Shown here one piece after another: positions 15,136-58,555 of a DNA stretch of 64,000 nucleotides (position 1 is the first letter of the stretch; each line of letters opens with the position of its first letter). The translations under genes and the position numbers were made by a program. The DNA comes from a virus. Lineage: Duplodnaviria; Caudoviricetes. The DNA lies in the IMG/VR virus record IMGVR_UViG_3300045015_000053. One strand, given 5' to 3'. The notes below the pieces were generated by a model, which saw nothing but the letters and a program-made list of their open reading frames with translations, searched no databases and was not told the origin of the DNA.

Positions 15136-15230
15136 GGGGGAGTAGCTCAGAGGCCAGAGCGCAATCTAGGGAGCCGATTAAAAACCGGCAAACGTGATTG
15201 AGGTCGTTGGTTCGACTCCAACCTCCCCCA
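15136..15230 (+). tRNA. tRNA-like RNA with 29-nt anticodon loop
   Basis: Acceptor GGGGGAG/CTCCCCC, normal D and T arms, stem CAATC/GATTG enclosing 15167-15195. Confidence 0.7.
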
Positions 15231-15233
15231 CTC

Positions 15234-15299
15234 GGCAGGATGTTAGTAGCGGACTACATTACACCAACACCAATGTGTCTCTACGATTTTTTGCCTGCC
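15234..15299 (+). ncRNA. tRNA-associated ATG/TTTTTG RNA module, copy 1
   Basis: GGCAGG-ATG...ACATT...AATGT...TTTTTTG-CCTGCC, 3 nt after a tRNA-like gene. Confidence 0.6.
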
Positions 15300-15307
15300 A
15301 CAACATG

Positions 15308-15630
15308 CCCCTGGTGGGGCGATCTGCCGGAATGGGCGACGGCAGACGTAACGCCAGGGGCTTCTTAAATCCAGAACGGGTCAGCGAAAAAGCACCAACG
15401 GCATGTAAGAGTGCCTACCCGTTCTGGACTCGTCTTCCGCCTTATCAGCGGAAGTGGTGGAGGCGACGGTGTCACCAACATCGCTGCCCTTCGGAGAGTA
15501 AACTCCGAGCGACTCCGGTCGCGAAACAAATCTGGTGGATCGCTGGCTACTGCCGGCCCCCGGAGTACAGTCTTCGGACGGGCTTGACCCGGAAACAAAA
15601 CTGATGTGGAGTTCCTGTAAAAAGGGGCTT
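15308..15630 (+). ncRNA. unidentified multi-hairpin RNA
   Basis: Stems GCCCCTGG/CCAGGGGC, TCCAGAACGGG/CCCGTTCTGGA, TTCCGC/GCGGAA; no credible ORF. Confidence 0.5.
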
Positions 15631-15635
15631 CATAT

Positions 15636-15707
15636 GGGGAGCAGGTGTCAAGGGACACGTCCTGGCTAATCACCGGGAAGAGTGGGGTTCGATTCCCCGG
15701 CTCCCCT
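15636..15707 (+). tRNA. tRNA-Ile(AAT)
   Basis: Acceptor GGGGAGC/GCTCCCC; CCTGG-CT AAT CA-CCGGG; T loop TTCGATT. Confidence 0.65.
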
Positions 15708-15736
15708 CTGGCGATGGGGATATACCCCTCGCCTCT

Positions 15737-15827
15737 CACTCGCAACATTTTTGACCCGGTCGGGGTGCGATCCCCGTGGGTATGCAGTAGCGGGTGTACA
15801 TTCATGAAAAGCGGAGGGACGTAATGT
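15737..15827 (+). ncRNA. tRNA-associated RNA module, permuted copy 2
   Basis: CACTCGC..TTTTTG-ACCC[T-arm-like hairpin]GGGT-ATG..GCGGGTG-TACATT..AATGT. Confidence 0.5.
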
Positions 15828-15920
15828 CCGAACACTACCAGAGGGGACCGCCCCTGAGAATGTACTACCCCTATATGGCACCCATGTCCGCATACCGCAT
15901 CTGATCGCGCGGGCCGGGTG

Positions 15921-15955
15921 ACAAAAACCCCAGTGAAACCCACTGGGGTTTTTGT
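15921..15955. terminator. intrinsic terminator, A- and T-tailed
   Basis: ACAAAAACCCCAGTG/CACTGGGGTTTTTGT. Confidence 0.8.
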
Positions 15956-15974
15956 TTTTCAAGATAGATACAGC

Positions 15975-25988: not shown

Positions 25989-26059
25989 TGCGGAGTGGAG
26001 GAGAGGTTCCTTGTGAGGCTCATAACCTCAAGACGCTGGTTCGAGTCCAGCCTCCGTAA
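25989..26059 (+). tRNA. tRNA-Met(CAT), initiator-like
   Basis: TGAGG-CT CAT AA-CCTCA; acceptor TGCGGAG/CTCCGTA. Confidence 0.9.
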
Positions 26060-26065
26060 CTAGAC

Positions 26066-26136
26066 TGCGGGTTGGAGGAGAGGTTCCTTGTGAGGCTCAT
26101 AACCTCAAGACACTGGTTCGAGTCCAGTACCCGCGA
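26066..26136 (+). tRNA. tRNA-Met(CAT), tandem near-duplicate
   Basis: Same D and anticodon arms as previous; acceptor TGCGGGT/ACCCGCG. Confidence 0.9.
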
Positions 26137-26211
26137 CTCAGGCAGACGGAAAGAATTTTGGAAATCTGCCAAAAGGCGTGAACCACTTACGGGTGAAAGC
26201 GTCTATACTAC

Positions 26212-26560
26212 ACGGGCCGACGATGTCCATCCAAAAGGGATGGCTCACTCGACCCAAACCCAATGAAGCCGTAGGGGTGGATTTGGGGTCCAAATAATGC
26301 GAGTTCAATCTCGCGGAAGTCACTGCCATGTTCGTCGTAAACCACAAGCCAGGGAAACAGATGCAAGCGCAGGCAGTGCGCGTTTGCACTGGCATTACCG
26401 TCAACGGACCCGCCGCCGCATGGTGCGAACGTCCGCAAGGTAATGATAAGACCAAGACTCCCTGACTTCTCATCAGAGATCAGTCGGGGATTAACTCCCC
26501 CGGCGATAGCACACAAGAACCCTCGCCGGGGTCAAAGCTCTGGCGAGGGTTCTTTCGTTT
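26212..26560 (+). ncRNA. unidentified structured RNA with own promoter and terminator
   Basis: TATACT at ~26203; hairpin GCGAGTTCAATCTCGC at 26299; terminator AAGAACCCTCGCC/GGCGAGGGTTCTT-T at 26515-26560. Confidence 0.55.
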
Positions 26561-26601
26561 GGGAGACTGAGATGACGTATAAACGCAGGGGCTTTTAATC
26601 T

Positions 26602-26675
26602 GGCCCCGAAAGCTTTAGCTAGATGAGCAACAGCCTTTTAAGCTGTGGAAGAGGGTGCGATTCCCTACGGGGCTA
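26602..26675 (+). tRNA. tRNA-Lys(TTT)
   Basis: ACAGC-CT TTT AA-GCTGT; acceptor GGCCCCG/CGGGGCT. Confidence 0.85.
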
Positions 26676-26681
26676 CTGAAT

Positions 26682-26754
26682 GGCCCGCTTGCTACAACGG
26701 AGAAGCGCCGAGCTTTTAACTCGGTCACGGTCGGTTCGATTCCGACGCGGGCTA
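26682..26754 (+). tRNA. tRNA-Lys(TTT)
   Basis: CCGAG-CT TTT AA-CTCGG. Confidence 0.85.
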
Positions 26755-26859
26755 CTCCAAATGACGTGTAATTGTGTTGTCGTTGTCACCGCGAGTTGCA
26801 TGCCAACTTGCTTGACAAAATCACACTGCAAAAGACTTACGAAGCTGAATGGGAAAGAC

Positions 26860-26933
26860 GGCTGTGTAGCATAATTGGTAGTGCGACGGTTTCATAAGCC
26901 GTGTCAGCGTCGGTTCGACTCCGACCACAGCTA
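26860..26933 (+). tRNA. tRNA with CAT anticodon (Met or Ile2)
   Basis: ACGGT-TT CAT AA-GCCGT. Confidence 0.85.
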
Positions 26934-26990
26934 CTAACGCCTGGATTCATCTCCGGGCCGTTCTTTGACAAGTAGGTAAGCCATAATACG

Positions 26991-27029
26991 GTGACTCACA
27001 CGTCAATTACCAGTTGACGTGTGAGTCAC
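26991..27029. repeat. perfect 16-bp inverted repeat with 7-nt loop
   Basis: GTGACTCACACGTCAA-TTACCAG-TTGACGTGTGAGTCAC. Confidence 0.85.
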
Positions 27030-27036
27030 CTGAAAC

Positions 27037-27108
27037 GGCCCGTTCGACTTCTGGCGAGGTCAGCAGTTTTTCAAACTGTTCAGGCGAGATCGAAACTCGC
27101 ACGGGTCA
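27037..27108 (+). tRNA. non-canonical tRNA-Glu(TTC)
   Basis: GCAGT-TT TTC AA-ACTGT; T loop ATCGAAA. Confidence 0.65.
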
Positions 27109-27174
27109 CTGCACGACATTGCGGATGATAGAACCTGTCAAAAGGTTTAGCGCCTTCTGTAATGCGTGCTACAT

Positions 27175-27246
27175 GGCCCATTCGACTTCTAGTGAGGTCA
27201 CCTGTTTCTCGAACAGGTCAGGTCGGAGCGTAACCGACATGGGTCA
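27175..27246 (+). tRNA. non-canonical tRNA-Glu(CTC)
   Basis: CCTGT-TT CTC GA-ACAGG; T loop AGCGTAA; paralog of previous. Confidence 0.65.
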
Positions 27247-27265
27247 CTGACGGCTTCCAAAGAAT

Positions 27266-27336
27266 GCGGGATTGATGAAGTGGTATCGTGTCACGCTTCC
27301 AACGTGAACTCGCCGGTTCGATTCCGGCATCCCGTA
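27266..27336 (+). tRNA. tRNA-Gly(TCC)
   Basis: TCACG-CT TCC AA-CGTGA. Confidence 0.9.
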
Positions 27337-27393
27337 CTTGCAAGGTTCCATTTTTGTCTATAGTGTGTGGGGCAACTCAAACACGAGGCAATC

Positions 27394-27690
27394 ATGAAAC
27401 GGCAAAAGATCAAGCTCGAAGGCGGTCCACTGGATGGCGCGGAGATGGAGGTCGATGAACACATCTTCAAGTCCATCTTGGCTCAAGGTGGGCTGACGCT
27501 GGAGTGGCCCTTCGAGGAAGAAAAGTTCGATCCGATGAAGTTTACAGTCAGGGCGAACAAACCCGTGACGTATCAGGATCGAGGAATGTCGTCAATCGAT
27601 GATCAACCGATTTACGACTACGAATCGGCGTACCCTCTGTGGTACGAAAACGACAAGGACCAGATCATGGAAATGATCAAAGGTAATTAA
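27394..27690 (+). CDS. hypothetical protein
   Basis: GAGG RBS; LEGGPLDG motif. Confidence 0.65.
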   Translation: MKRQKIKLEGGPLDGAEMEVDEHIFKSILAQGGLTLEWPFEEEKFDPMKFTVRANKPVTYQDRGMSSIDDQPIYDYESAYPLWYENDKDQIMEMIKGN

Positions 27691-27699
27691 GTTGATCTT

Positions 27700-27832
27700 G
27701 TTGTGGTAGCTCAGTAGTAGAGCAGCGGACATGGCGAAAGCCTGTTGTCTCGCAATTTTTGCCCGCAAGGGATGCCTGATGGGATTACATTTTAATCCGC
27801 CGGTCGCAGGGTGCGAATCCTTGCCCACAACA
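27700..27832 (+). tRNA. tRNA-Lys(TTT) interrupted by a 59-nt insert (RNA module copy 3)
   Basis: GCGGA-C[27731-27789]TTTTAA-TCCGC; removing 59 nt restores a 7-nt loop. Confidence 0.75.
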
Positions 27833-27838
27833 CTAGAC

Positions 27839-27913
27839 TGCCGAAGATTCAGTGCTGGTACTGTAGTTCGCCTTTGAAGCGAAATGTCTCAGGTTCGATT
27901 CCTGATTCGGCAA
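27839..27913 (+). tRNA. tRNA-Gln(TTG)
   Basis: TTCGC-CT TTG AA-GCGAA. Confidence 0.85.
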
Positions 27914-27918
27914 CTTAC

Positions 27919-27992
27919 CAGGGCGTGGGAAAGCTTGGAAATCCGCTTGCGTCGGAAGCAAGAGATCGGCGGTTCAAATCCGCCCGCCCTGA
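27919..27992 (+). tRNA. tRNA-Pro(CGG)
   Basis: CTTGC-GT CGG AA-GCAAG. Confidence 0.85.
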
Positions 27993-27995
27993 CTT

Positions 27996-28066
27996 CGGGG
28001 ATTGGTATAGTGGAAGCACACATGCTTCGGGAGCATGTAGCGCAGGTTCGATTCCTGTATCCCCGA
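27996..28066 (+). tRNA. tRNA-Pro(CGG)
   Basis: CATGC-TT CGG GA-GCATG; weak D stem. Confidence 0.75.
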
Positions 28067-28116
28067 CTGAATAGGAAGGAATAGGAAAGCCTTCCGAAAT
28101 GATCGAAGTAAAACAT

Positions 28117-28191
28117 TGTCGAGGATTGAGTGCTGGTACTCTTGTCTGCCTCTGAAGCAGAATGTCTCAGGTTCGATTCCTGACTCGACAA
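28117..28191 (+). tRNA. tRNA-Gln(CTG)
   Basis: TCTGC-CT CTG AA-GCAGA. Confidence 0.85.
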
Positions 28192-28244
28192 CTAGATTGG
28201 CTCTGAGATTTGTGTTTTTCAGAGCCGACTTGCTAAGATAGTGT

Positions 28245-28664
28245 ATGAAGAAATGCACTATTTGTCGGCAAGATAAGGCTCTTGCCGACTTCAACAAAAA
28301 GCCAAGTACAAAAGACGGATACCAGACAAAGTGTCGCAAGTGCAGTAAGCGTCTTGCAAAGGCGCGGTACTACGACAATCGCGACACTGAAATGAAAAGA
28401 ATCAAGGACCGTCAAGAAGATCTTGCTAATCGGTTTTATGAATTCAAGCGAACTTTGCGGTGCGAGTTTTGTCCTGAGACAACAGCTTGCTGTTTGGACT
28501 TCCATCACCGCGACCCGAACTCGAAGGAATTCAACATCGCATTCGCTTGTCGCCAGGGTTACTCTTGGGACAAGCTCATGGAGGAAGTGAATAAGTGTGT
28601 GGTGGCCTGTGCGAACTGTCACAGGAAGATACATCACGGTTTGATTGATTGCCCGCTCGTATAA
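28245..28664 (+). CDS. HNH endonuclease, tRNA-associated family
   Basis: CTICRQ...CRKC; CEFC...CLDFHH...KCVVACANCHRKIH; stop codon inside the next tRNA. Confidence 0.9.
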   Translation: MKKCTICRQDKALADFNKKPSTKDGYQTKCRKCSKRLAKARYYDNRDTEMKRIKDRQEDLANRFYEFKRTLRCEFCPETTACCLDFHHRDPNSKEFNIAFACRQGYSWDKLMEEVNKCVVACANCHRKIHHGLIDCPLV

Positions 28665-28720
28665 CGGTAGTACAACTGACTCTGACTCAGTTAGTGAAGG
28701 TTCGACTCCTTCGTGGGCAT
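28650..28720 (+). tRNA. tRNA-Gln(CTG)
   Basis: ACTGA-CT CTG AC-TCAGT. Confidence 0.9.
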
Positions 28721-28725
28721 CTGAC

Positions 28726-28796
28726 TGAGGAATCATCTAATGGTAGGATGCAAGGCTTTGACCCTTGTCGTGGCGGTTCGAGTCCGTCTTCCTCAA
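28726..28796 (+). tRNA. tRNA-Gln(TTG)
   Basis: CAAGG-CT TTG AC-CCTTG. Confidence 0.9.
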
Positions 28797-28798
28797 CT

Positions 28799-28856
28799 TC
28801 CGACATGTTAGGAGAGAACACGCCAAGTGCGGCAGGTTCGAGGTCTGCTGTCGGAT
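28799..28856 (+). ncRNA. 58-nt tRNA-like RNA lacking a D arm
   Basis: Acceptor TCCGACA/TGTCGGA, T-arm-like GCAGG-TTCGAGG-TCTGC, small CAC-GCCAA-GTG hairpin. Confidence 0.45.
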
Positions 28857-28858
28857 AC

Positions 28859-28929
28859 GCGGGATTCGTTTAGTGGCAAGATCCAACTTTCCCAAAGTTG
28901 AGTCGCCGGTTCGATTCCGGCATCCCGTA
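28859..28929 (+). tRNA. tRNA-Gly(CCC)
   Basis: CAACT-TT CCC AA-AGTTG. Confidence 0.9.
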
Positions 28930-28933
28930 CTGT

Positions 28934-29006
28934 GGGCCATTGGCATGTCTGGCGATTGCAGCGGACTGTTAACCCGCCGAGGTTGGTTCGATTCCAACAT
29001 GGCCCT
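28934..29006 (+). tRNA. tRNA-Asn(GTT)
   Basis: GCGGA-CT GTT AA-CCCGC. Confidence 0.85.
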
Positions 29007-29026
29007 CTCGCTCCAAGAAAGGCAAC

Positions 29027-29281
29027 ATGAGCAAGACAACGTATTACCGGCAGTGCCGACTTCAACGCGGCAATTGCCACCAAGTGAGTTGGATTCCCGA
29101 ACCGTACTGCGTCAAGGACAAAGTCCTGAAGCTCAAGAACAGTGACGGTGTTTGGGAGAACGGATGGGTGGTGAAGGGAGCCGGAACCAACCGGATCACC
29201 GACGTGCCGCACGCCGAAGGTTTGATTCGCGCACACCGGAAAGCTACTGGTGATTCGCTGCCGAAAGGTCCGAACAATTGA
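29027..29281 (+). CDS. hypothetical protein
   Basis: 84-aa ORF within tRNA cluster. Confidence 0.7.
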   Translation: MSKTTYYRQCRLQRGNCHQVSWIPEPYCVKDKVLKLKNSDGVWENGWVVKGAGTNRITDVPHAEGLIRAHRKATGDSLPKGPNN

Positions 29282-29346
29282 AACAGGGGCAGGGTTTAGC
29301 CACCCTGATCGGTCGGGAGTAGCTACCCCGCCCGTGGCCCCTACAC

Positions 29347-29417
29347 GCGGGATTCGTTAAGTGGTAAGACGCATGCTTGCCAAGCATGAGACGCCGGTTC
29401 GATTCCGGCATCCCGCA
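29347..29417 (+). tRNA. tRNA-Gly(GCC)
   Basis: CATGC-TT GCC AA-GCATG. Confidence 0.9.
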
Positions 29418-29544
29418 CTCCGATTTTGAAGGCTCTGGTTCCCCTTGTGGGTGGTAAAAAGATCGCGCATAATCATCACGTTGCTGCGATTGGGCTGTAG
29501 AAATCGAAACCCCCAATGTCTGCGTAGCAGACAGGGAGTAAGTG

Positions 29545-30720
<1,176 letters not shown>

Positions 30721-30783: not shown

Positions 30784-30854
30784 GGCCCTATAGTCTAGTG
30801 GCAGGACGTAACCCTCTCAAGGTTAAGATTGGAGTTCGATTCTCCATAGGGTCA
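30784..30854 (+). tRNA. tRNA-Glu(CTC)
   Basis: TAACC-CT CTC AA-GGTTA. Confidence 0.9.
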
Positions 30855-30903
30855 CAGGCTCGACTACGTCCGACGCTCAGTTTTTCGGACGTTATAATTT
30901 GTC

Positions 30904-31329
30904 ATGGAGAAGACATGTTACAAGTGTAAACAATTGAAGCTTGCGGACGAGTTCTCGAAAGATACTCGGAGTAAAGATGGGTTGTGTGCGGCTTGTAGAG
31001 CTTGCCGAAGCGAGCTTAAAAAGCAGTATTACAACCGCGAACATGATGGCTTGAGGATCAAGCAGCTTGAGAAGCGTCGGAAGCTTCAGGATTGGGTTAG
31101 CACATTCAAGAAAGAGTGTAGTGTTTGCGGAGAGGATCATCCGGCTTGTTTGGATTTTCATCATGATGGCGAGAAGGAAGCAGGTATTGCCAACATGATC
31201 AATCGCAACAATATGACCGACGAAATGAGATCGAAGGTTTTGGCTGAGATCGCCAAATGCAAAGTCTTGTGTTCAAACTGTCACAGGAAGTTGCACTGGA
31301 AAGAAAGAAGAGAAGGCCCATTCGTCTAG
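30904..31329 (+). CDS. HNH endonuclease, tRNA-associated family
   Basis: CSVCG...CLDFHH...KCKVLCSNCHRKLH; TATAAT 5 nt upstream; stop inside the next tRNA. Confidence 0.9.
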   Translation: MEKTCYKCKQLKLADEFSKDTRSKDGLCAACRACRSELKKQYYNREHDGLRIKQLEKRRKLQDWVSTFKKECSVCGEDHPACLDFHHDGEKEAGIANMINRNNMTDEMRSKVLAEIAKCKVLCSNCHRKLHWKERREGPFV

Positions 31330-31385
31330 TGGTAGGACATCAGATTTTCACTCTGACAACCGGAGTTCAATTCTCCGATGGGTCA
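31315..31385 (+). tRNA. tRNA-Glu(TTC)
   Basis: TCAGA-TT TTC AC-TCTGA. Confidence 0.9.
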
Positions 31386-43204: not shown

Positions 43205-43278
43205 GGTGTGCGTGGTGTAGTGGCTTTGCACGTTTCCCTGTGAAGGAAAAGGTGGCGGATCGTAACCGCTCGCACACC
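43205..43278 (+). tRNA. tRNA-His(GTG)
   Basis: G-1:C73 8-bp acceptor; TTTCC-CT GTG AA-GGAAA; atypical T loop ATCGTAA. Confidence 0.8.
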
Positions 43279-43345
43279 CTAGTCGAGATGACAGACAGGA
43301 GTACATTCACTACTCGTTCTCTTGTCAACTTATTGCTCGGCTTAT

Positions 43346-43413
43346 GCCCCGCCCTGCGGTCAGGTTCGGAGTCTACGAAACTCTGAAGTTCCGTTCGACT
43401 CGGAAGCGGGGTA
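43346..43413 (+). tRNA. tRNA-Arg(ACG), compact
   Basis: GGAGT-CT ACG AA-ACTCT; acceptor GCCCCGC/GCGGGGT. Confidence 0.7.
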
Positions 43414-43416
43414 CTT

Positions 43417-43487
43417 GCCCGGTCCAGCGGTTTACCGGCACTGAGCTTGCGAAGCTCGGTTGCGTGGTTCGACTCCACGACAGGGTA
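43417..43487 (+). tRNA. tRNA-Arg(GCG)
   Basis: TGAGC-TT GCG AA-GCTCG. Confidence 0.7.
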
Positions 43488-43491
43488 CTCG

Positions 43492-43553
43492 GTGAGATGA
43501 ACGTAGGGATTACATTGGTTATGTGAAATCTCTACAACCTTTTTGCTCATCAC
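43492..43553 (+). ncRNA. tRNA-associated RNA module, copy 7
   Basis: GTGAG-ATG..GTAGGGATT-ACAT..ATGT-GA-AATCTCTAC..TTTTTG-CTCAT. Confidence 0.65.
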
Positions 43554-43574
43554 ATTTTCTTCCGAAAGGCGCGA

Positions 43575-43853
43575 ATGGCGACGAGTGGCGACCCTGAGAT
43601 CTGGTTGTTGCAACGCATTGATGAGTTGCAGGACAAACCTAATTGGCCCGCGACCCACAAGAACATCTGGCAGGGCAGTTATGATGTGTGGTTCTCGGAA
43701 CAAGATCGGATCGACGCCTACGAGATTCCAAAAAGACGGATGGCGAGCGCTGTCAAGCAGGATCTCATTCAGAGTAGCATCAAGGAAGTCGGGAAGTACA
43801 AGTTCGAGGTCTGGAGTTTGACCGAGAAGGGCAAGCAGTTGATTGGCAAGTGA
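43575..43853 (+). CDS. hypothetical protein
   Basis: 92-aa ORF. Confidence 0.65.
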   Translation: MATSGDPEIWLLQRIDELQDKPNWPATHKNIWQGSYDVWFSEQDRIDAYEIPKRRMASAVKQDLIQSSIKEVGKYKFEVWSLTEKGKQLIGK

Positions 43854-43866
43854 TGTGGGCAATAAC

Positions 43867-44058
43867 ATGAGCAAGACGATTTTGCCGTGGCCGATGATTT
43901 TGGGGCTAACCGCCGGAATCATGGTCGGAAATTGTTGCTTGAAATTGCTTGAAGACTGGCCTCGCGACAAAGGGTTGTTGTTCGGTTTGGTTTGCGGCCT
44001 CGTGAACGTTGTTTTGTGCGGTTCGTTCCGTGTAATTGAATGGATGGTTCGGCGTTAA
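43867..44058 (+). CDS. small membrane protein
   Basis: Two hydrophobic segments. Confidence 0.55.
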   Translation: MSKTILPWPMILGLTAGIMVGNCCLKLLEDWPRDKGLLFGLVCGLVNVVLCGSFRVIEWMVRR

Positions 44059-44132
44059 CGGCCCATAGTGTAGTGGTTTCTGCACGAGAGTCTGATAAAC
44101 TCTAAGTCGAAGTTCGATTCTTCGTGGGCCGA
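44059..44132 (+). tRNA. tRNA-Ile(GAT)
   Basis: AGAGT-CT GAT AA-ACTCT. Confidence 0.9.
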
Positions 44133-44141
44133 CTGATTGAT

Positions 44142-44211
44142 GGTGTACGACTCCGGTGAGTAGTTGTGGTTGTGAACTATGACAAGGTGGGTTCGACCCC
44201 CATCGTACACC
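44142..44211 (+). tRNA. tRNA-His(GTG), short D arm
   Basis: GGTGTACG/CGTACACC; loop TT GTG AA. Confidence 0.75.
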
Positions 44212-44214
44212 CTT

Positions 44215-44292
44215 GCGAGATGACCTTGTTGGGGATTACATTCCTTTTCAGAATGTGCCGAAAGGCACAATCTCCGACGTTCTTTTGCTCGC
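44215..44292 (+). ncRNA. tRNA-associated RNA module, copy 8
   Basis: GCGAG-ATG..GGGATT-ACATT..AATGT[GTGCCGAAAGGCAC]AATCTC..T-run-G-CTCGC. Confidence 0.65.
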
Positions 44293-44298
44293 TTTATT

Positions 44299-44370
44299 CG
44301 GCCTGTCGTTCAATGGTTAGGACAGTGGTCTGATAAACCGCAAACGGTGGTTCGACTCCACCCAGGCCGA
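44299..44370 (+). tRNA. tRNA-Ile(GAT)
   Basis: GTGGT-CT GAT AA-ACCGC. Confidence 0.9.
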
Positions 44371-44422
44371 CTTCTGTCTGATAATTTTTCCAATTTATCA
44401 GACAACATGGCTATAATACGTC

Positions 44423-44890
44423 ATGGAGAAATACTGCTCGACATGCAAGCAGACCAAGCTTTGCTCTGCATTCAACAAGAACCGCTATCGCAAAGACGGC
44501 CTGCAAGTCAGGTGCAGAGATTGCGACAAAGCCAGATCAAAACAGAGGTATCAGGGCGAGTACAAAGACTACTACATCGCCAAGAGCCAAGAGACGCTGG
44601 CTGCACGACGCCAGTGGTTCGAGGATTACAAGAAAGACAAATGCTGTTCACGGTGTGGCGACCTTCGCTGGTATGTGTTGGAGTTTCACCACCGTGACGG
44701 CGTTGACAAGGAAGACGAAATCTCTCGAATGGTCTTCAACAAGAGATCGGTCGATAAGATCATGCTGGAGATAGCCAAGTGCGATCTGGTGTGCGCCAAC
44801 TGCCACCGTGAATTGCACCACATGCAAAAACAGACGGGCGGTTCGACCCCGCCCTTCCGTACTGACGGGTTTCCACCCAGTAAAAACTAG
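44423..44890 (+). CDS. HNH endonuclease, tRNA-associated family
   Basis: CSRCG...LEFHH...KCDLVCANCHRELH; TATAAT 5 nt upstream. Confidence 0.9.
   Translation: MEKYCSTCKQTKLCSAFNKNRYRKDGLQVRCRDCDKARSKQRYQGEYKDYYIAKSQETLAARRQWFEDYKKDKCCSRCGDLRWYVLEFHHRDGVDKEDEISRMVFNKRSVDKIMLEIAKCDLVCANCHRELHHMQKQTGGSTPPFRTDGFPPSKN
44833..44861 (+). pseudogene. orphan tRNA 3' half inside the HNH gene end
   Basis: GGCGG-TTCGACC-CCGCC-CTTCCGT-A-CT. Confidence 0.55.
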
Positions 44891-44997
44891 CAGGGTATCG
44901 GCTAGTTTCCCTGTCTACCCATAACCTCTGGTACGCTTGCGTGCCGGAAGGCTGAAACAACAGTGTACTGGTCGCTTTGCGGCCGGTGGGGACAAAA

Positions 44998-45070
44998 GGC
45001 GGCGTAGCCAAGTGGTAAGGCACCTACCCGCAAGGTAGGAGATTCGGGGGTTCGAGTCCTTCCGCCGCCT
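44998..45070 (+). tRNA. tRNA-Cys(GCA)
   Basis: CCTAC-CC GCA AG-GTAGG; U73. Confidence 0.8.
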
Positions 45071-45084
45071 CTGAGGATTTCAAG

Positions 45085-45312
45085 ATGAAAGACTTCGATG
45101 AAACCGTCGCGCGGTTCAAGAATCAAGAACTCGACGTAGACGATTGGAACTTTGTCGTCCACTACGAAGGTGCCGGCGACTACGCGGCCTACATCATGGG
45201 CGAAGGCTCTCAGCAGTGCCTCGCCTACAAGACGGGGTTCGCGAGCAAGGAAGTAGTCATCGAGTTCTTCAAGTCCCTCGGCGTCAGCCGGGTACTCGAA
45301 GGGCTTGGGTAA
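45085..45312 (+). CDS. hypothetical protein
   Basis: GAGG RBS. Confidence 0.65.
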   Translation: MKDFDETVARFKNQELDVDDWNFVVHYEGAGDYAAYIMGEGSQQCLAYKTGFASKEVVIEFFKSLGVSRVLEGLG

Positions 45313-45383
45313 CAGGGGTAATTGTTACGGTAGCATTCTACTTTTGGAAAGTAGCAGCGTGGGTTCGACTCCCGCACCCCTGA
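45313..45383 (+). tRNA. tRNA-Pro(TGG)
   Basis: CTACT-TT TGG AA-AGTAG. Confidence 0.85.
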
Positions 45384-45401
45384 CTCGGAAACGCCTATGA
45401 C

Positions 45402-45602
45402 ATGAGGGCCGAGCAGAGAACCTTCACCGCCGAACTTCTGGCTTGGGGTTCTCTCCTGCTGGCTCTGGGCTTTCTGGTGGTCCCCATCTTGATGGGCGAA
45501 CCACGGCACATGTCGAACCCGATCTGCGAAAACGGGTTCATCGTGTTCGGCTTCGCCTGTTGCGCGTTTTTCTTGGTCGTGTTCGTGAATCCTGACAAAT
45601 GA
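45402..45602 (+). CDS. small membrane protein
   Basis: Two hydrophobic segments. Confidence 0.6.
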   Translation: MRAEQRTFTAELLAWGSLLLALGFLVVPILMGEPRHMSNPICENGFIVFGFACCAFFLVVFVNPDK

Positions 45603-45603
45603 C

Positions 45604-46001
45604 CGGGGACAAGTGTTCCGCTTCTGCTATAATTTGGGTATGAGCAGAGCAGAATACCGTCGCGAGTATCGTCGCCGTCGCAACTTGACCGACCCGAACT
45701 GGCGCAAAACAGAAAACGCAGATCAACTGAAACGGATTGAGCGAAATCGCCAGTTCGTAAATGAATTCAAGAAAAACAAAGGTTGCAAGTATTGCCCGGA
45801 GGCGGCTGTTTGTTGCCTCGACCTCCATCACCGAGATGGTGAAGAGAAAGACAAGGCGGTTTCCTACATGGTCAAAATGGGCTATGGTTTGGAACGCCTA
45901 AACGAAGAGATTCAGAAGTGTGACGTGGTGTGTGCAAACTGTCATCGCAAGTTGCACGCTGGTCACGTTCTGAATAGTAGATAACGGGGACAAGTGTTCC
46001 G
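45604..46001 (+). mobile_element. HNH cassette bounded by a 17-bp direct repeat of the tRNA-Pro 5' end
   Basis: CGGGGACAAGTGTTCCG at 45604-45620 and 45985-46001. Confidence 0.75.
45640..45984 (+). CDS. HNH endonuclease, tRNA-associated family
   Basis: GCKYC...CLDLHH...KCDVVCANCHRKLH; TATAAT 6 nt upstream. Confidence 0.9.
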   Translation: MSRAEYRREYRRRRNLTDPNWRKTENADQLKRIERNRQFVNEFKKNKGCKYCPEAAVCCLDLHHRDGEEKDKAVSYMVKMGYGLERLNEEIQKCDVVCANCHRKLHAGHVLNSR

Positions 46002-46056
46002 GTACGCACCCGTGCTTTGGGAGCATGGAGAGCGGGTTCGATTCCCGCGTCCCCGA
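45985..46056 (+). tRNA. tRNA-Pro(TGG)
   Basis: CGTGC-TT TGG GA-GCATG. Confidence 0.8.
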
Positions 46057-46059
46057 CTT

Positions 46060-46224
46060 ATGCGACACCTACTCAACTTTCTGATCCTGCTGACGGCGGT
46101 CATCGGATTGCCATTCGGGTGGATCGTTGCTTGGAACAAGCCCATTGGCAAGAAGCTCCAGACGAGCTTCGTGTGCGGCGTAGTTCTTGTAGCGGCCGTC
46201 ATCCTGTACTTCAGCTTGAGGTGA
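46060..46224 (+). CDS. small membrane protein
   Basis: Two hydrophobic segments. Confidence 0.55.
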   Translation: MRHLLNFLILLTAVIGLPFGWIVAWNKPIGKKLQTSFVCGVVLVAAVILYFSLR

Positions 46225-46227
46225 TTT

Positions 46228-46410
46228 GTGGGTGCAAAATCAACCATAGACATCACGCGGGCCGAGGCGTTGGCTTTCATCATGGACGCTTTGGGTCGTG
46301 CCGACAACGAGACGATTTCGCGTGTTCTTGAAGAATTGAACGACTGCGTTCGTGAGAGCGGCGACTACTCGAACAGTCTCGGCTTGCACAACTTTGCGGT
46401 TCGGGGCTAA
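46228..46410 (+). CDS. hypothetical protein
   Basis: GTG start after GAGG. Confidence 0.55.
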   Translation: MGAKSTIDITRAEALAFIMDALGRADNETISRVLEELNDCVRESGDYSNSLGLHNFAVRG

Positions 46411-46418
46411 ATAACCAC

Positions 46419-46616
46419 ATGAAGAAGACCTTGTTTTCAAAGTGGTTGAAGGTTCGCGAGGCGGTGGGCGGCGCGGTCGGCCCTTACATCGCGGGCAAAA
46501 AGGACAAGACTGGTTCCGGGTGCGGCAAGCACACCGACTTCCAAGTCAGCGGCGCGTGCAGCGACCTGAACACTGAGAAGGGGAACAAGAAGATCCGCGA
46601 CGGCAACATCAAGTAA
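46419..46616 (+). CDS. small protein with capsid-targeting-like N-terminus
   Basis: MKKTLFSKWLKVREA; TAAATA 5 nt upstream. Confidence 0.7.
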   Translation: MKKTLFSKWLKVREAVGGAVGPYIAGKKDKTGSGCGKHTDFQVSGACSDLNTEKGNKKIRDGNIK

Positions 46617-46617
46617 C

Positions 46618-46705
46618 GGATGGGTAGATTAACTGGTAGAGCGATAAGTGTAGACGGAGATCCGTCAAGCATCAAAGTGTGTGGGTTCGAGTCCCACCCC
46701 ATCCG
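46618..46705 (+). ncRNA. Ser-type tRNA-like RNA with no canonical anticodon arm
   Basis: Acceptor GGATGGG/CCCATCC-G-CT, normal T arm; central GACGG-AGAT-CCGTC hairpin. Confidence 0.5.
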
Positions 46706-46714
46706 CTCGACAAT

Positions 46715-46787
46715 CGGGGTGAAGTCTTGTTAGTGAGACGCCTGTCTGGGGGACAGGAAGCGGCCGGTGCAACTCCGGTCACCCCGA
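46715..46787 (+). tRNA. tRNA-Pro(GGG)
   Basis: CCTGT-CT GGG GG-ACAGG. Confidence 0.85.
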
Positions 46788-46793
46788 CTTTAT

Positions 46794-46865
46794 GCACCGG
46801 AGCCTCTATGGTTGGGGTGCCGTCTTATAAGCGGCTAGTCGTGGGTTCGATTCCCACCCGGTGTA
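46794..46865 (+). tRNA. tRNA-Ile(TAT)
   Basis: GCCGT-CT TAT AA-GCGGC. Confidence 0.85.
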
Positions 46866-46877
46866 CTCGGAGGTCGG

Positions 46878-49156: not shown

Positions 49157-49516
49157 AATGTCTAAGCAGCAAGAGCGAGATGAGCAACTCGCTGAGTTGT
49201 GGCGGGTGTTAACAGAAACACACGAACCGAGCCACCGCGCACGGCGCAAGCCGGGTGAGGAAATATCCCACACAACTGCCAAAGTGGAAGAAAAAGGTCG
49301 CGAGGCCGAGTATCGCTATCACCACGAATGTGCAAGCCAAACAGACCTGAGCCGGGGGCAGGGCGTTGAAGGTCGGGTTGGTGCGGCAGCTATCGGGCTG
49401 CGGGGCGAGCAATCGCCTCAGTCTAATGGTGGCACTTGTTATACGCGACTCAAAGGTTACGGCCTTTGAGTCAGGCGTGTGGCATAGAACAGAATGGGAG
49501 TTACGGGTTCGTGGAC

Positions 49517-49588
49517 GGTCGATTCGTCTAGTGGCGAAGACATCTGCATCACACGCAGAAAACAGGGGTTCGATTCCCTTATCGACTA
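49517..49588 (+). tRNA. tRNA-Val(CAC)
   Basis: TCTGC-AT CAC AC-GCAGA. Confidence 0.85.
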
Positions 49589-49610
49589 CTAACTACTCTG
49601 GAGTCTGATC

Positions 49611-49760
49611 ATGGCGAGCTTCGCGGACGGGATCGGTCAGGGACTCGACGGGATATTCAAGGTCGGCGGGTGCATCATCATCTTCCTTTTGGGTCTGAGC
49701 GTTCTGTCGCTCGGCACTACGGCTTACCTGCTGTGGCGGTTCTGGGGTCAGTTGTTTTGA
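49611..49760 (+). CDS. small membrane protein (49 aa)
   Basis: GGAG RBS; hydrophobic segment; translated by eye. Confidence 0.55.
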   Translation: MASFADGIGQGLDGIFKVGGCIIIFLLGLSVLSLGTTAYLLWRFWGQLF

Positions 49761-49768
49761 GTTGTGAT

Positions 49769-49839
49769 CGGCGATTCGTTCAATGGTAGGACACCTGCCT
49801 GACGTGCAGAAGACGGGGGTTCGATTCCCTCATCGCCGA
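49769..49839 (+). tRNA. tRNA-Val(GAC)
   Basis: CTGC-CT GAC GT-GCAG. Confidence 0.85.
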
Positions 49840-50003
49840 CTTTGACCAGAGGTGTCTTATGCCCAGAAACTCCATCCTCGGTGAAGCTCTCGCCTGTTTC
49901 ATCATGGCGGGTCTTATGCCGATCTTCATTCTCGTCTTTTTGACTGGCGGCATTCCAACTTTGGCTGTCGCCAGTCATCGCCGAGATTGACTAAGATTAC
50001 GGT

Positions 50004-53473: not shown

Positions 53474-53782
53474 ATGACCGCCGAAGAGTTCAACGTGTTG
53501 TGTCAGGGGTTGATTACCTACAACCCCAACAACTTCCTCGAAAAGCTGTTCAAGACCGACAACGGGTGGTTCCCGTTCGGCGAGTTGGGCATCGCCTCGC
53601 CAGAGGCGATTCGGGTGACGTACATGCAGACGCCGTGGGCGAACTTGGCGGTGATCGTGTTCTTCCACATGTTCGAGGGCTACACCTACAGCAAGACGTA
53701 CAAGATCACCGATCTGCCGTCCGTGCGGGACGGGTACGCGAAACTCAAGGAATCGTTGCCGGGCAACTCCGTCTGCCAGTGA
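53474..53782 (+). CDS. hypothetical protein
   Basis: GGAG RBS. Confidence 0.65.
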   Translation: MTAEEFNVLCQGLITYNPNNFLEKLFKTDNGWFPFGELGIASPEAIRVTYMQTPWANLAVIVFFHMFEGYTYSKTYKITDLPSVRDGYAKLKESLPGNSVCQ

Positions 53783-53955
53783 CGGGCGCGGGGTTCAACT
53801 CCCCGCGATTCCTTTTCGGGGCCGAAAGGCAGGGCGAGCGAAAGCTGTGACCTCTGGTGGGAGCCGCCAAAGACTGTCGCCTAGTCTGGGCTTGCCTCGT
53901 AGCAGGTGACTATAGAGCAAGATGGCAACTTGCGTGGCCGACCCCACCCCCGACA
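53783..53955 (+). ncRNA. candidate structured RNA beginning with a T-arm-like hairpin
   Basis: CGGGG-TTCAACT-CCCCG, GCGAAAGC hairpin; no ORF. Confidence 0.3.
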
Positions 53956-55747: not shown

Positions 55748-56362
55748 ATGACCGGCTACACCCAAGAACTCGTTGATCGGAAGCTAGGATTCGAGGACTT
55801 CGCACTCCTCTGTAGTCGGGCCTTCGGCGCACTCGTCACCCTCCGCGACGAACCCCTTTCTGCACCGATCCCCCAAGAACTCAAGCCGAGCAACTACCAC
55901 TTCAAGGAAATCGGCAAGGCGAAAGCCGCACTCCTCAAGCTCCGCGCGATCAAGACCAAGAAAGACCGCATCGTTTGGGGCCGCAAGCGGCTCAAGAAGG
56001 ACATCGCGGCTTACACCGTACACCGCGACGAAGCGAAGTCGAAAGATACTACCGGCCAAATGCGTGCCGTTCTGATGAAGGTCGAGGCGTGGAAGCCGCC
56101 GCACCCCGACCATGCGGAGTTCAAGAAGTTCATGGTGCAACAACTGACCGACTCCATTGCGATGGAGGAACGGTCGGGCGACTTCTACGGCGACATGGTC
56201 ACCAAGCTGGAAGGCACCGGCCCGCTCACCGCTTACGAGCAAGCACTCAAGAAGGCGAAGGACGATCTCGCCTACCACACGAAAGAGTGGAAGGAAGAGG
56301 TCGCCCGCACAAAGAGCCGGAACCTCTGGCTCGGTCGCCTGCGTCGTTCTCTGAAGAAGTGA
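55748..56362 (+). CDS. hypothetical protein
   Basis: AGGA RBS; typical codon usage. Confidence 0.75.
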   Translation: MTGYTQELVDRKLGFEDFALLCSRAFGALVTLRDEPLSAPIPQELKPSNYHFKEIGKAKAALLKLRAIKTKKDRIVWGRKRLKKDIAAYTVHRDEAKSKDTTGQMRAVLMKVEAWKPPHPDHAEFKKFMVQQLTDSIAMEERSGDFYGDMVTKLEGTGPLTAYEQALKKAKDDLAYHTKEWKEEVARTKSRNLWLGRLRRSLKK

Positions 56363-56386
56363 TCCGCCCTTAACTGGAGTTCTGTC

Positions 56387-56548
56387 ATGTCTGTTCTCGA
56401 ACGCATGCGCAAGGTTCGTAAGGTTCCCGATCACCTCCGTCAGTACCGCGATCCCGAAACCGGGTGGCTGTACATCCGCGACGGAGCGTACCTGATCACC
56501 TACTGGGCCAACGGGGAAGTCAAGTCCGTCGAGGTGGTCGGCAAGTGA
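56387..56548 (+). CDS. hypothetical protein (53 aa)
   Basis: GGAG RBS; GTGA coupling to the next gene. Confidence 0.55.
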   Translation: MSVLERMRKVRKVPDHLRQYRDPETGWLYIRDGAYLITYWANGEVKSVEVVGK

Positions 56549-56976
56549 TCATCGAAGAAACCGGCAAGCATGTGCCGCTGTTTGCGGGGACCGGCGTACT
56601 GCGGTACTCCCGGCCCCCTGAATACGGCTTCAGGCTCGTGATGGAATGCGATCAGGCTATCGCCGACTACTACCGCGCCCTGATCCCCAAATACAAGAAA
56701 CCCGCTCCGCAAAGATACGGCGCACACGTCTCGGTCGTCAGGAAGGAAATTCCCGACTTGGCGGCTTGGGGGCGGTACGAGGGCGAGCCGATTGAGTACA
56801 TCTACACCGGCACCGTCTACTTCGGCCGGGTCTACTGTTGGCTGAACGTGTTCTGCACGCGGCTAGAGGAAGTGCGGCGCGAGTTGGGCCTCCCGGTAGC
56901 CAGTGAGTACACCCTGCCGCCGGAAGGCTTCACCAAGTGCTTCCACATGACAATTGGCAATTTTAAGGAACTGTGA
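56545..56976 (+). CDS. putative 2H phosphoesterase
   Basis: Two H-x-[S/T] motifs: AHVSVV and FHMTIG. Confidence 0.6.
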   Translation: MIIEETGKHVPLFAGTGVLRYSRPPEYGFRLVMECDQAIADYYRALIPKYKKPAPQRYGAHVSVVRKEIPDLAAWGRYEGEPIEYIYTGTVYFGRVYCWLNVFCTRLEEVRRELGLPVASEYTLPPEGFTKCFHMTIGNFKEL

Positions 56977-57236
56977 TGACACTTCCACCACTGCCGTATG
57001 CCGACTGGATCACGGCGATCCTCACCATCAGCTACATGCAGTTGATGGCGATGAGGAACGGGTGGGCGTGGCCGCTCGGCATCGCCACGCAGTTCCTCTG
57101 GATCTACATGAGCGTCTCGAAAGAGATGTACGGCATCGTGGTGCTTTCTCTGGTGTTGATGGCACAGTGTGCTTACGGCTGGTGGAACTGGAGCCGCCCG
57201 CCAGAGAAAGAACCCCTCGAAATGGGTGACCAATGA
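56973..57236 (+). CDS. PnuC-like small membrane protein
   Basis: Three hydrophobic helices; WAWPLGI and YGWWNW. Confidence 0.55.
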   Translation: MMTLPPLPYADWITAILTISYMQLMAMRNGWAWPLGIATQFLWIYMSVSKEMYGIVVLSLVLMAQCAYGWWNWSRPPEKEPLEMGDQ

Positions 57237-57407
57237 GATACCGAATCTTGATGGCCGTTTTGTTGGCGTCGGGTGTGGCAGGTTGGATCGCAATGATTCC
57301 CGCGCCGCCCTGTCAGAAAAACAAGTCGAATTCAGGGTTGTCAACCACGCGAAGGTTTGATACCTTCTTCTTGAAGCCTCTAACTGCGGACACCGTTCCG
57401 CTGCAAC

Positions 57408-57734
57408 ATGAAGTATTCAGACCGAATCCTGAAGGTCGGCGAGAAACGCTACCGAAGCCTTTCCGCGACCTTGTACCGCCACGACCTTGAGAACCTCGTC
57501 TTGTGTGGCGTTCCGGCCGACGAATACGCTCACGAGGCGTTGTTGGTACTCGAAGAGGCCGACAAAGAAACGAACTTGACCGAGGCGCGGGTGCTGGCGA
57601 TCTTGGTGGACGTTTTCACCAAGATGTTCTCCCCGCCACGCGAAGACTACCGGCGAAACCGAATCGAGCGAGCTTCGGTCAGCCCGAAGTACGCGGCGGC
57701 GGCGAAGGAAGTCTTTGAGGAGTTGACATCGTGA
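57408..57734 (+). CDS. hypothetical protein
   Basis: PADEYAHEA motif; overlaps alternative ORF 57233..57490. Confidence 0.6.
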   Translation: MKYSDRILKVGEKRYRSLSATLYRHDLENLVLCGVPADEYAHEALLVLEEADKETNLTEARVLAILVDVFTKMFSPPREDYRRNRIERASVSPKYAAAAKEVFEELTS

Positions 57735-57860
57735 TCGTTGGTCCCGTAGCTCAGTTGGTAGAGCAGCGCACTATTTATTGAGTTAACTTGGGGATAAATA
57801 ATGGTTATTTTTTAATTTTCGTAATATATAATTAAAATAATTAAAATAAAAGGATCAAAT

Positions 57861-58292
57861 ATGAAATCATTTAGAGAATGGGTTAAGAAAAATAAGAATG
57901 TAAATTTAAATGAAAATAGTAATGAAGCTGAAATCCAACAATTGGTAGGATTAATTGATGAACCGATGAAACAAATCTTGTCCATTCAAAAACAGTTTAC
58001 TTTCAATCCACATGTTGCAAACACACCAGAGCAAAATAGCCAAATTCACCAAATTGCGAATCAAATTTCTCCCACCATTAAGAAACTGGGAAGTTCGGTG
58101 CTATCAGTCCATGAAAAAACAGGCTATGAGATGATGAAATTGGGAGATTCGTTGTTCAAAAGCGACTCAAATACAACACGAGCTATTTTGGAGTTTGCTC
58201 AAAAATGGGAACAGATAAAACAATTGGCATTATCTGCATCATCATCTGCAAAAAAATTGTTTAAAAGTAAATTCGGCAAATTCGGCGGATGA
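57861..58292 (+). CDS. AT-rich protein with capsid-targeting-like N-terminus, inside the split tRNA
   Basis: MKSFREWVKK; A/T-ending codons unlike the flanking genes. Confidence 0.75.
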   Translation: MKSFREWVKKNKNVNLNENSNEAEIQQLVGLIDEPMKQILSIQKQFTFNPHVANTPEQNSQIHQIANQISPTIKKLGSSVLSVHEKTGYEMMKLGDSLFKSDSNTTRAILEFAQKWEQIKQLALSASSSAKKLFKSKFGKFGG

Positions 58293-58330
58293 AATTTTTG
58301 ATACCGTCGATCCACCCTTTGGAGAATCGA

Positions 58331-58408
58331 ATGGATATCTGGAAGGACATTCCTGGGTATGAAGGCTTCTACCAAGTGAGCAATACGGGGAACGTTAGGA
58401 ATGCGTAG
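58331..58408 (+). pseudogene. NUMOD4 motif fragment (remnant of a NUMOD4-HNH endonuclease)
   Basis: MDIWKDIPGYEGFYQVSNTGNVRNA*, stopping inside the tRNA 3' half. Confidence 0.75.
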
Positions 58409-58555
58409 GTCGAGGGTTCGACTCCCTCCGGGGCCACTTGAAGACAATCTGCGGTCTAATGTTCGAGGCGATGATTGCAATGGTGTTGGTAACCATTGCA
58501 ATCATCGCCTCTTTTTTCTTGGGTATAATCTCACAGCCCACAACCGGAGGACAAA

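Follow-up and report, generated by a model that had tools for sequence, protein, structure and literature searches.

The CCA-less tRNAs of phage T4 (Pro, Ser, Ile and Gln) are matured by the host RNase BN together with a CCA-adding enzyme. In chloroplasts, many tRNA genes encode the first C of CCA, C74 (PMC3161902), and a spinach chloroplast tRNase Z fraction, as the work of Oommen et al. (1992) is summarized in PMC3161902, cuts after C74 and leaves a nucleotidyltransferase to add the rest. CCA inhibits tRNase Z, with C74 forming the strongest part of this antideterminant (Fan et al., 2011; PMC3161902), and the CCA-less tRNAs of Bacillus subtilis are cut by RNase Z, according to the accounts of Pellegrini et al. 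(2003) given in PMC1874595, PMC3161902 and PMC8549757. Here we analyze the tRNA genes of a 64,000-nt stretch of viral DNA (the window; bases 41123-105122 of the 188,369-bp IMG/VR virus record IMGVR_UViG_3300045015_000053, hereafter G000), nearly all of which continue directly after the discriminator base (N73) with C-T, or C74-U75 in the precursor, instead of CCA.

To our knowledge, tRNA processing from long transcripts in tRNA-rich huge phages is unstudied. A near-invariant two-base flank provides a handle on the maturation of transcripts with 50-60 tRNAs in such phages, as it predicts where the precursors are cut and which enzymes matter, whether a CCA-adding enzyme, an RNase Z/BN-like nuclease or RNase P. 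Partial encoding of CCA is already known from chloroplasts and T4. What is new is that it takes a near-invariant C-U form, that this form extends through a group of huge phages and that another huge phage has a parallel C-A form.

Results

C-T follows nearly every tRNA gene of the window

tRNA genes were sought with ARAGORN, the Rfam tRNA model, low-threshold ARAGORN, a permissive cmscan and our own acceptor-stem/T-arm scan. ARAGORN reported 44 genes, all on the + strand, and the Rfam model 37; six weaker genes, at 26603, 38853, 43417, 44143, 46618 and 58364, were added from Rfam, low-threshold ARAGORN and our own scan, for a total of 50 tRNA or tRNA-like genes. Since the ARAGORN end coordinate takes in any CCA prefix, N73 was placed from the length of the bracket string, and three independent ways of placing it agreed (the discriminator of the gene at 26603, for example, is position 26675). 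N73-C-T occurs in 48 of the 50 genes, and full CCA is encoded in none. An earlier, sequence-only reading of the window had counted C-T after 52 of 56 tRNA or tRNA-like genes and had seen no encoded CCA, which agrees in substance with our count once two tRNA 3' remnants, one ending at 44861 and one near 33000, are added, both likewise ending in C-T. That reading was also right that the orphan 3' half at 44861 and both His genes carry C-T, the latter when G-1:C73 is counted. The exceptions it listed held up in part: Glu(CTC) at 30784 is a true one, with C-A, whereas no normal tRNA lies at the other three positions, which hold a minihelix (28799), a 5' fragment (32205) and a plain hairpin (33051). 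The remaining exception in our set is a short Trp-like gene at 53748, followed by T-T.

Comparison with background confirmed that C-T after N73 is real and highly non-random. CT makes up 5.0% of the dinucleotides on the tRNA strand and follows 42 of the 44 ARAGORN genes (binomial p = 2e-52); as an internal control, it follows 5 of 68 low-score, false-positive ARAGORN tRNA calls from the same genome (7%). Information content is 1.76 bits at position +1 and 1.86 bits at +2, falling to at most 0.08 bits at +3 to +7. C occupies +1 (C74) in 96% of the G000 genes and U occupies +2 (U75) in 98%, and C74 is found in 92% of genes in the relatives described below. The 5' side carries a weaker signal, with A at -2 in 72% and a pyrimidine, favoring U, at -1. 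G at -2, a potential partner of C74, is nearly absent (0.02; 2% of genes).

The tRNA-bearing intervals of the window, with the gene for elongation factor EF-Tu that lies among them, are as follows:

15136..15709, + strand: tRNA-Ser(GGA) and tRNA-Ile(AAT), each then C-T (ARAGORN, own scan)
25989..29419, + strand: dense block of 17 tRNAs (three Met, two Lys, two Glu, three Gly, four Gln, two Pro, one Asn), all N73-C-T
28799..28856, + strand: 58-nt tRNA-like minihelix between tRNA-Gln and tRNA-Gly, then A-C
29542..30720, + strand: phage EF-Tu gene within the tRNA array, full length (Pfam GTP_EFTU, D2 and D3 domains)
30784..30856, + strand: tRNA-Glu(CTC), the sole well-formed exception, A73-C-A
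31315..34054, + strand: tRNA-Glu(TTC), two Lys(CTT) and two Asp(GTC), all C-T
37180..39008, + strand: two Asn(GTT), two Trp(CCA) and a weak Val(TAC)-like gene at 38853; G73 or A73, then C-T
40573..42024, + strand: Ala(GGC), Ala(CGC), Ala(TGC) and Thr(GGT), all C-T
43206..46867, + strand: two His (G-1:C73), two compact Arg, two Ile(GAT), Cys, three Pro and Ile(TAT), all C-T
46618, within 43206..46867, + strand: long-arm tRNA, C-T
Within 43206..46867, + strand: orphan tRNA 3' half (C-T, ends at 44861) joined to the end of the HNH-type open reading frame (ORF) 44423-44890
49517..49841, + strand: tRNA-Val(CAC) and tRNA-Val(GAC), both A73-C-T
53748..53815, + strand: short (65-67 nt) Trp(CCA)-like gene, then T-T, a doubtful tRNA
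58364..58438, + strand: weak Ser(GGA)-like tRNA, A73-C-T

The C-T dinucleotide persists across a group of huge phages as other flank positions drift

Thirty-seven viral loci were fetched with the EF-Tu protein as query. The close relatives among them (L001-L010 and L033; EF-Tu 67-74% identical) all keep the rule, with 8-13 C-T among 11-15 tRNAs each; more distant EF-Tu-bearing viral contigs have C-A (L012) or mixtures. The complete 532,729-bp relative G001 carries 56 tRNAs, of which 51 end in C-T, 3 in C-A and 2 in T-T, and none encodes full CCA. Through the divergent nucleotidyltransferase of G001 we reached LR756511.1 (SR-VP_PHAGE_COMPLETE_CIR-CU-CL_42_23; Al-Shayeb et al., 2020), a 595,163-bp phage from vernal-pool mud with 42% GC, in which C-T follows 56 of 63 tRNAs and two have full CCA.

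The tRNA bodies have strongly diverged within this group: just 11 tRNAs of G000 can be matched at 70% identity or above to one with the same anticodon. In these orthologue-like pairs, the trailers agree fully at +1 and +2 (identity 1.00) and drop to 0.09-0.27, the random level, at +3 to +10. As the first two positions are kept while the other flank positions are randomized, C-T is under selection; and as LR756511.1 keeps the rule at 42% GC, C-T is explained neither by base composition nor by common descent of the flanks. The proposal of the earlier reading that C-T is a conserved 3' maturation signal is borne out to this extent, the dinucleotide having been kept across the group while tRNA bodies and other flanks diverged.

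The tRNA array lies in a fragment of a lake-water phage

CheckV puts the completeness of the 188,369-bp record at about 37%, so G000 is part of a phage genome that measures roughly 0.5 Mb. It occurs in DNA sequencing runs of lake-water metagenomes (of the 14 lake or freshwater runs listed, none is recorded as RNA), and searches of the window DNA with megablast and blastn gave no match to cultured phages. The tRNA array is very large and confined to the + strand, with small ORFs in between; EF-Tu, a methyltransferase and a HAD-nucleotidyltransferase fusion are among the genes of the window. Spacers in the 25989..29419 block shrink to C-T-T between neighbors, and some neighboring isoacceptors in the array are clear duplicates. 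The minihelix at 28799-28856 has a 7-bp acceptor-like stem and a T-arm-like hairpin and lacks an anticodon arm; the 5' fragment at 32205 and the remnant near 33000 both fall in the 31315..34054 interval. The ORF at 44423-44890 (+ strand, 155 aa) has an HNH-type motif (..CANCHRELHH..) at its end and runs into the orphan tRNA 3' half, so that the pair looks like a homing-endonuclease cassette that has split a tRNA gene.

Relatives encode CCA-adding enzymes, and no RNase Z was found

The sequence-only reading had suggested that a phage nuclease or nucleotidyltransferase encoded elsewhere might recognize the mark. This is borne out in part: relatives encode one or two class II nucleotidyltransferases. 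G001 has a divergent 575-aa class II nucleotidyltransferase with GGxVRD, RDFTxN and EDP motifs; G002 has an enzyme of this type and, in addition, an E. coli Cca-like enzyme with an HD domain; and PF01743 proteins occur likewise in G005 and LR756511.1. The group enzyme is unusually long, at 489-575 aa (L040, G001:C1:256320-258047, and L041), with an insertion of about 40 aa in the PolyA_pol head domain and an N-terminal extension of about 90 aa. A host CCA-adding enzyme is presumably also available. No support emerged for split CC-adding and A-adding enzymes, which had also been raised.

The RNase Z fold (PF12706) had no match in G000, G001, G002 or G005, neither RNase PH nor an rnpA protein gene was found in the phage group, and a DEDD exonuclease gave a weak match only; the group does encode an RNase P RNA-like gene, described below. 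Canonical RNase Z is present in the sampled Bacteroidota whose tRNA genes encode C74 alone, so the enzyme coexists with universal C74 in those cells. Our own PxKxRN regular expression, sought as a marker of C74 tolerance, matched no canonical RNase Z and was therefore uninformative. Three Planctomycetota metagenome-assembled genomes (MAGs; G006, G007 and G008) have CCA-less tRNA genes only, yet their TIGR02651 RNase Z matches are weak (56-64 bits, compared with 282-335 bits in Bacteroidota, Gemmatimonadaceae and Archangium genomes), which may reflect incomplete MAGs or a divergent enzyme.

A miniature RNase P RNA-like gene lies in the tRNA arrays

The most surprising element of the analysis is an RNase P RNA-like gene in the same arrays. 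The L15 loop of RNase P RNA contributes two G residues that base-pair with tRNA positions C74 and C75 (Wegscheid and Hartmann, 2007; PMC1874595); the G-C74 pair is the more important, and an isosteric swap leaves full activity (PMC1874595). The phage matches surfaced when the Rfam class A model (RF00010) was run to test host RNase P loops against trailers: G001 scored 53 bits (E 3e-16), G002 51 bits and seven further relatives 41-67 bits (E 4e-13 to 5e-22). All nine lie below the Rfam gathering score (41-67 against 100 bits), yet they align over the whole model. An nhmmer profile built from G001 (G001:C1:464339-464576) and G002 (G002:C1:30108-30377) then found a single homologue in G000, at window positions 49215-49514 (E 1.2e-13):

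49221..49514, + strand: RNase P RNA-like gene, catalytic-domain-only form (nhmmer profile)

The closing helix P1 of this gene is formed by CACGAACC with GGTTCGTG and ends 2 nt before tRNA-Val(CAC). RF00010 itself does not detect the G000 copy, for which cmscan gives only RNaseP_arch at 14.4 bits (E 0.05); an 8-sequence profile gives E 2.7e-42, the G000 sequence itself being part of that profile. The same profile found a copy of about 200 nt in LR756511.1 (224236-224435, E 6e-19). In all, 11 records carry the gene (G000, G001, G002, G003, G005, G051-G053, G055, G056 and LR756511.1). These are the records that show the C-T rule, and the gene lies next to or inside their tRNA arrays. None was found in LR745206.1, G004 or the C-A contigs.

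The phage RNAs are 238-294 nt long, apart from the shorter LR756511.1 copy. Their specificity (S) domain (P7-P14, CR-II and CR-III) is nearly gone, about 110 model positions having been reduced to about 22 nt with one short helix left. Kept are the core elements CR-I (GAGGAAGUUCUGGAC), CR-IV (AGAUAAAUG) and CR-V (ACAGAAUCC), the J5/15 GCAAG and P15/P16 with the L15 loop; in the G000 copy, CR-I and CR-IV have diverged further and there is an additional hairpin. Folding the alignment with RNAalifold recovered P1, P3, the long-range P4, P15 and P16, with strong covariation in P1, P3 and P4. Of the alignment cells, 94.8% pair, as against 76.8% in shuffles and 32-45% when the partners are slid, and 26 of 42 pairs have changed on both sides (0 of 500 shuffles reach that). 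P4 is paired throughout (100%), with changes on both sides in 7 of its 8 pairs. The 3' loop of L15 reads (G/U)GGU(N), with GGU invariant in nine of nine phage copies; in bacteria it reads GGGU in 10 of the 10 P RNAs sampled, whether their tRNA genes carry C74 or U74. We class the gene as RNase P RNA-like, its product being a candidate for cleavage of pre-tRNA 5' leaders. If active, it would be a phage-encoded RNase P and a natural minimal RNase P of bacterial type. We found no description of RNase P RNA in huge or jumbo phages in the searchable literature.

C74 without CCA is widespread, and the second base varies with lineage

For comparison, 80 bacterial loci from many phyla were fetched with the EF-Tu query, tuf being usually flanked by tRNAs, and about 10-15 tRNA loci were taken from each of 15 genomes, together with a 30-genome Myxococcota sample; Actinobacteria, Cyanobacteria and Chlorobia fall outside this small set of about 20 genomes and 80 tuf loci. 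CCA is encoded at the sampled loci of Proteobacteria, Firmicutes, Verrucomicrobiota and most Myxococcota. Planctomycetota never encode it, and their trailers begin with U (72%) or C-U (22%), so that every gene has U at +1 or +2; Gemmatimonadaceae trailers resemble these, starting with U. C74 is present in 97 of 97 Bacteroidota genes and in 36 of 36 from Ignavibacteria and Calditrichota (133/133; loci L054-L123, L155-L184 and L215-L244). Position 75 in Bacteroidota is A in 47%, T in 25%, C in 21% and G in 7%, full CCA being merely occasional. An A at -2 with avoidance of G is common to the phage and Bacteroidota. Archangium has C-T in 12 of 20 CCA-less genes, which prompted us to consider Myxococcota as a C-T lineage; the phylum sample, being mostly CCA, ruled this out.

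Among other phages, the 634,780-bp huge phage LR745206.1 (loci L367-L395) has N73-C-A after 49 of 53 tRNAs and so follows another strict dinucleotide rule specific to its lineage. In Mycobacterium phage ScoobyDoobyDoo, 27 of 27 genes have C74, followed by G, T, C or A and mostly forming C-G. T4 encodes CCA in four of eight genes; its tRNA-Pro (A73-C-U) directly abuts tRNA-Ser, its tRNA-Gln (G73-C) directly abuts tRNA-Leu, and its Ser and Ile trailers begin with U. C74 without CCA is thus a widespread design, and its second base is lineage-specific and far stricter in huge phages than in the sampled cellular genomes. The earlier concern that C-T might be generic is accordingly half right: C74 without CCA is generic, among the sampled genes of Bacteroidota, Ignavibacteria and Calditrichota and in other phages, but C-T at 90% or above was reached by no cellular group sampled.

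Discussion

The reading we favor, and hold to be probable, is that selection maintains C74-U75 in CCA-less pre-tRNAs as a mark for processing of the 3' end, in a design that templates CCA only in part. Only the first C of CCA would be templated, U75 being the start of a trailer that is discarded. Long transcripts of the tRNA array would have their 5' ends cut by RNase P, and a host nuclease would take off the trailer at N73 or past C74, either with a cut of the RNase Z/BN type or by exonucleolytic trimming. A class II nucleotidyltransferase, largely supplied by the phage, would then add what is missing, C-A or C-C-A. A base other than C at 75 may keep the precursor from resembling a finished C-C end, which blocks RNase Z-type enzymes, and a cut placed one base late would be harmless because tRNA-N73-C is still a correct primer. 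Where the cut falls, which nuclease makes it and why U is used over A or G are in this scheme predictions from sequence. Bacillus RNase Z has a preference for uracil, which U at 75 would fit; a downstream uracil reportedly activates the enzyme, as Pellegrini and co-workers are said to have found in 2012. Trimming to C74 before completion, the route that the sequence-only reading had guessed, is plausible and has a precedent in chloroplasts (PMC3161902), although the cut position is not fixed by these sequences.

Several observations weigh against this design. C74 inhibits RNase Z of the Bacillus type, and the trailers here, with C74 in 96% of genes, are not free of the antideterminant, so a simple route in which RNase Z cuts after N73 is not obviously compatible with them. 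The nuclease must be the host's, given that neither RNase Z nor RNase PH was found in the group, and PF01743 is absent from the G000 fragment, which represents about 37% of the genome. Partial encoding of CCA also leaves unexplained that U is fixed in the C-T group but A in another lineage.

One alternative, which we consider doubtful but which is compatible with a partial-CCA design and might be an added layer of it, is that C74-U75 serves chiefly as an anchor for RNase P, read by an RNase P RNA without an S domain that the phage itself encodes. The second G of L15 would pair with C74 and the first would form a wobble pair with U75, and in a ribozyme that lacks the domain reading the T loop this contact between L15 and the 3' end would matter most, being the only one available. 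The presence of the RNA gene in the 11 records that follow the C-T rule speaks for such an anchor, as do the end-to-end alignment with the class A model, the retained core motifs, the covariation, including that of P4, and tRNA leaders that favor U at -1 and A at -2. The L15 GGU is invariant, and its bacterial counterpart pairs with C75, C74 and N73, in line with the published G-C74/G-C75 pairing (PMC1874595). Yet all the matches lie below the Rfam gathering score, the G000 copy is more diverged, catalysis is predicted only, and the phages have no detected rnpA protein gene. Against an anchor as the sole cause, C74-only genes also occur in LR745206.1, where no P RNA was detected, and in bacteria; the A75 of the C-A phage cannot pair with G; and the constancy of GGGU in 10 of 10 bacterial RNAs, across C74 and U74 species, means that the L15 loop does not track the trailer. 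A bolder combination, a private tRNA maturation line in which a phage S-domain-less RNase P, a C74-U75 tag pairing with the GGU loop and phage CCA-adding enzymes act together, we regard as unlikely; were it true, phage tRNAs would be matured with little dependence on the host, or preferentially over host processing.

Less probable again is plain host mimicry, whereby the flank habit would be copied from a host with C74 and mostly U75 and would have no phage-specific meaning. The universal C74 of the sampled Bacteroidota, Ignavibacteria and Calditrichota, the -2 A common to the phage and Bacteroidota, and the C-T of Archangium all fit this idea, and C-A, the form seen most often in Bacteroidota, is used by LR745206.1, which belongs to a size class for which Al-Shayeb et al. 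predicted Bacteroidetes hosts (PMC7162821). The C-A of this phage, however, is far stricter than that of Bacteroidota (92% against 47%), and the sampled cells all stay below the phage frequency of C-T (T75 25% in Bacteroidota, C-T 22% in Planctomycetota, mostly CCA in Myxococcota), although the bacterial comparison is small. Shine-Dalgarno sites are used in the phage group (36% as against 15% in a control window), whereas in the sampled Bacteroidota loci the figures are 8% and 8%. The published profile of LR756511.1 names no host and has Bacteroidetes outside its three best-matching phyla. Efforts to assign a host gave no candidate: the EF-Tu of the window has best bacterial matches of merely 58-65% identity scattered across many phyla, tRNA similarity returned short and weak matches only, and the published LR756511.1 table holds no assignment. 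Planctomycetota, as a host candidate, have mostly U-starting trailers and no -2 A bias, but their Shine-Dalgarno use is as in the phage. That C-T has no function at all, having hitch-hiked with duplicated tRNA genes or arisen from faulty end calling, might be suspected from the duplicated isoacceptors and from the shift of ARAGORN ends with a CCA prefix. It is excluded by the lack of information at +3 to +7 among 50 genes of about 20 specificities, by orthologue flanks that are random except at +1 and +2, by the agreement of the three N73 placements and by the background CT level of the false positives.

Since the dinucleotide differs by lineage (C-U, C-A and, in the mycobacteriophage, mostly C-G), it might be of use in marking a lineage or a host. 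The survey further suggests that an entire bacterial superphylum as a rule encodes the first C of CCA alone. According to Ardell and Hou (2016; PMC5143459), CCA is not templated in the Bacteroidetes/Chlorobi group, and a templated C74 goes unmentioned there; we found no phylum-level C74 rule stated in that paper or in other searchable literature.

Among known systems that share the partial-CCA design we favor, the closest are the chloroplast tRNA genes that encode C74 (PMC3161902). As in the phage, the gene has no CCA and C74 is templated. The cut reported for chloroplasts falls after C74 whatever follows, with the CCA remainder added enzymatically. They differ in that C74 is found in 'many' chloroplast genes with the next base free, whereas the phage has C74 in 96% and U75 in 98%, and in that the chloroplast enzyme is a tRNase Z of the Thermotoga type, whereas the phage group encodes no detected RNase Z. 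The CCA-less genes of B. subtilis resemble those of the phage in having U within two bases of the discriminator, but their trailers usually start with U and C74 is the main antideterminant, while C74 is nearly invariant in the phage. Bacteroidota, Ignavibacteria and Calditrichota share with it a universal C74, rare CCA and an A at -2 with G avoided there; in Bacteroidota, unlike in the phage, position 75 is mixed and Shine-Dalgarno motifs are not used. T4 has a tRNA cluster with very short spacers and A73-C-U in tRNA-Pro, as the window phage does, but its ends are mixed, with no genome-wide rule, and it has neither a phage nucleotidyltransferase nor a phage RNase P RNA. For the RNase P RNA-like gene, the nearest counterpart comes from Pyrobaculum, whose RNase P RNA is of the minimal type T (Lai et al., 2010; PMC3012483; following the account in PMC7191817). 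Both RNAs have lost nearly the whole specificity domain and kept the catalytic core within about 200-290 nt; the Pyrobaculum RNA is archaeal and cellular, whereas the phage RNA, known from its sequence, has a bacterial class A core with an L15 GGU and lies inside tRNA arrays.

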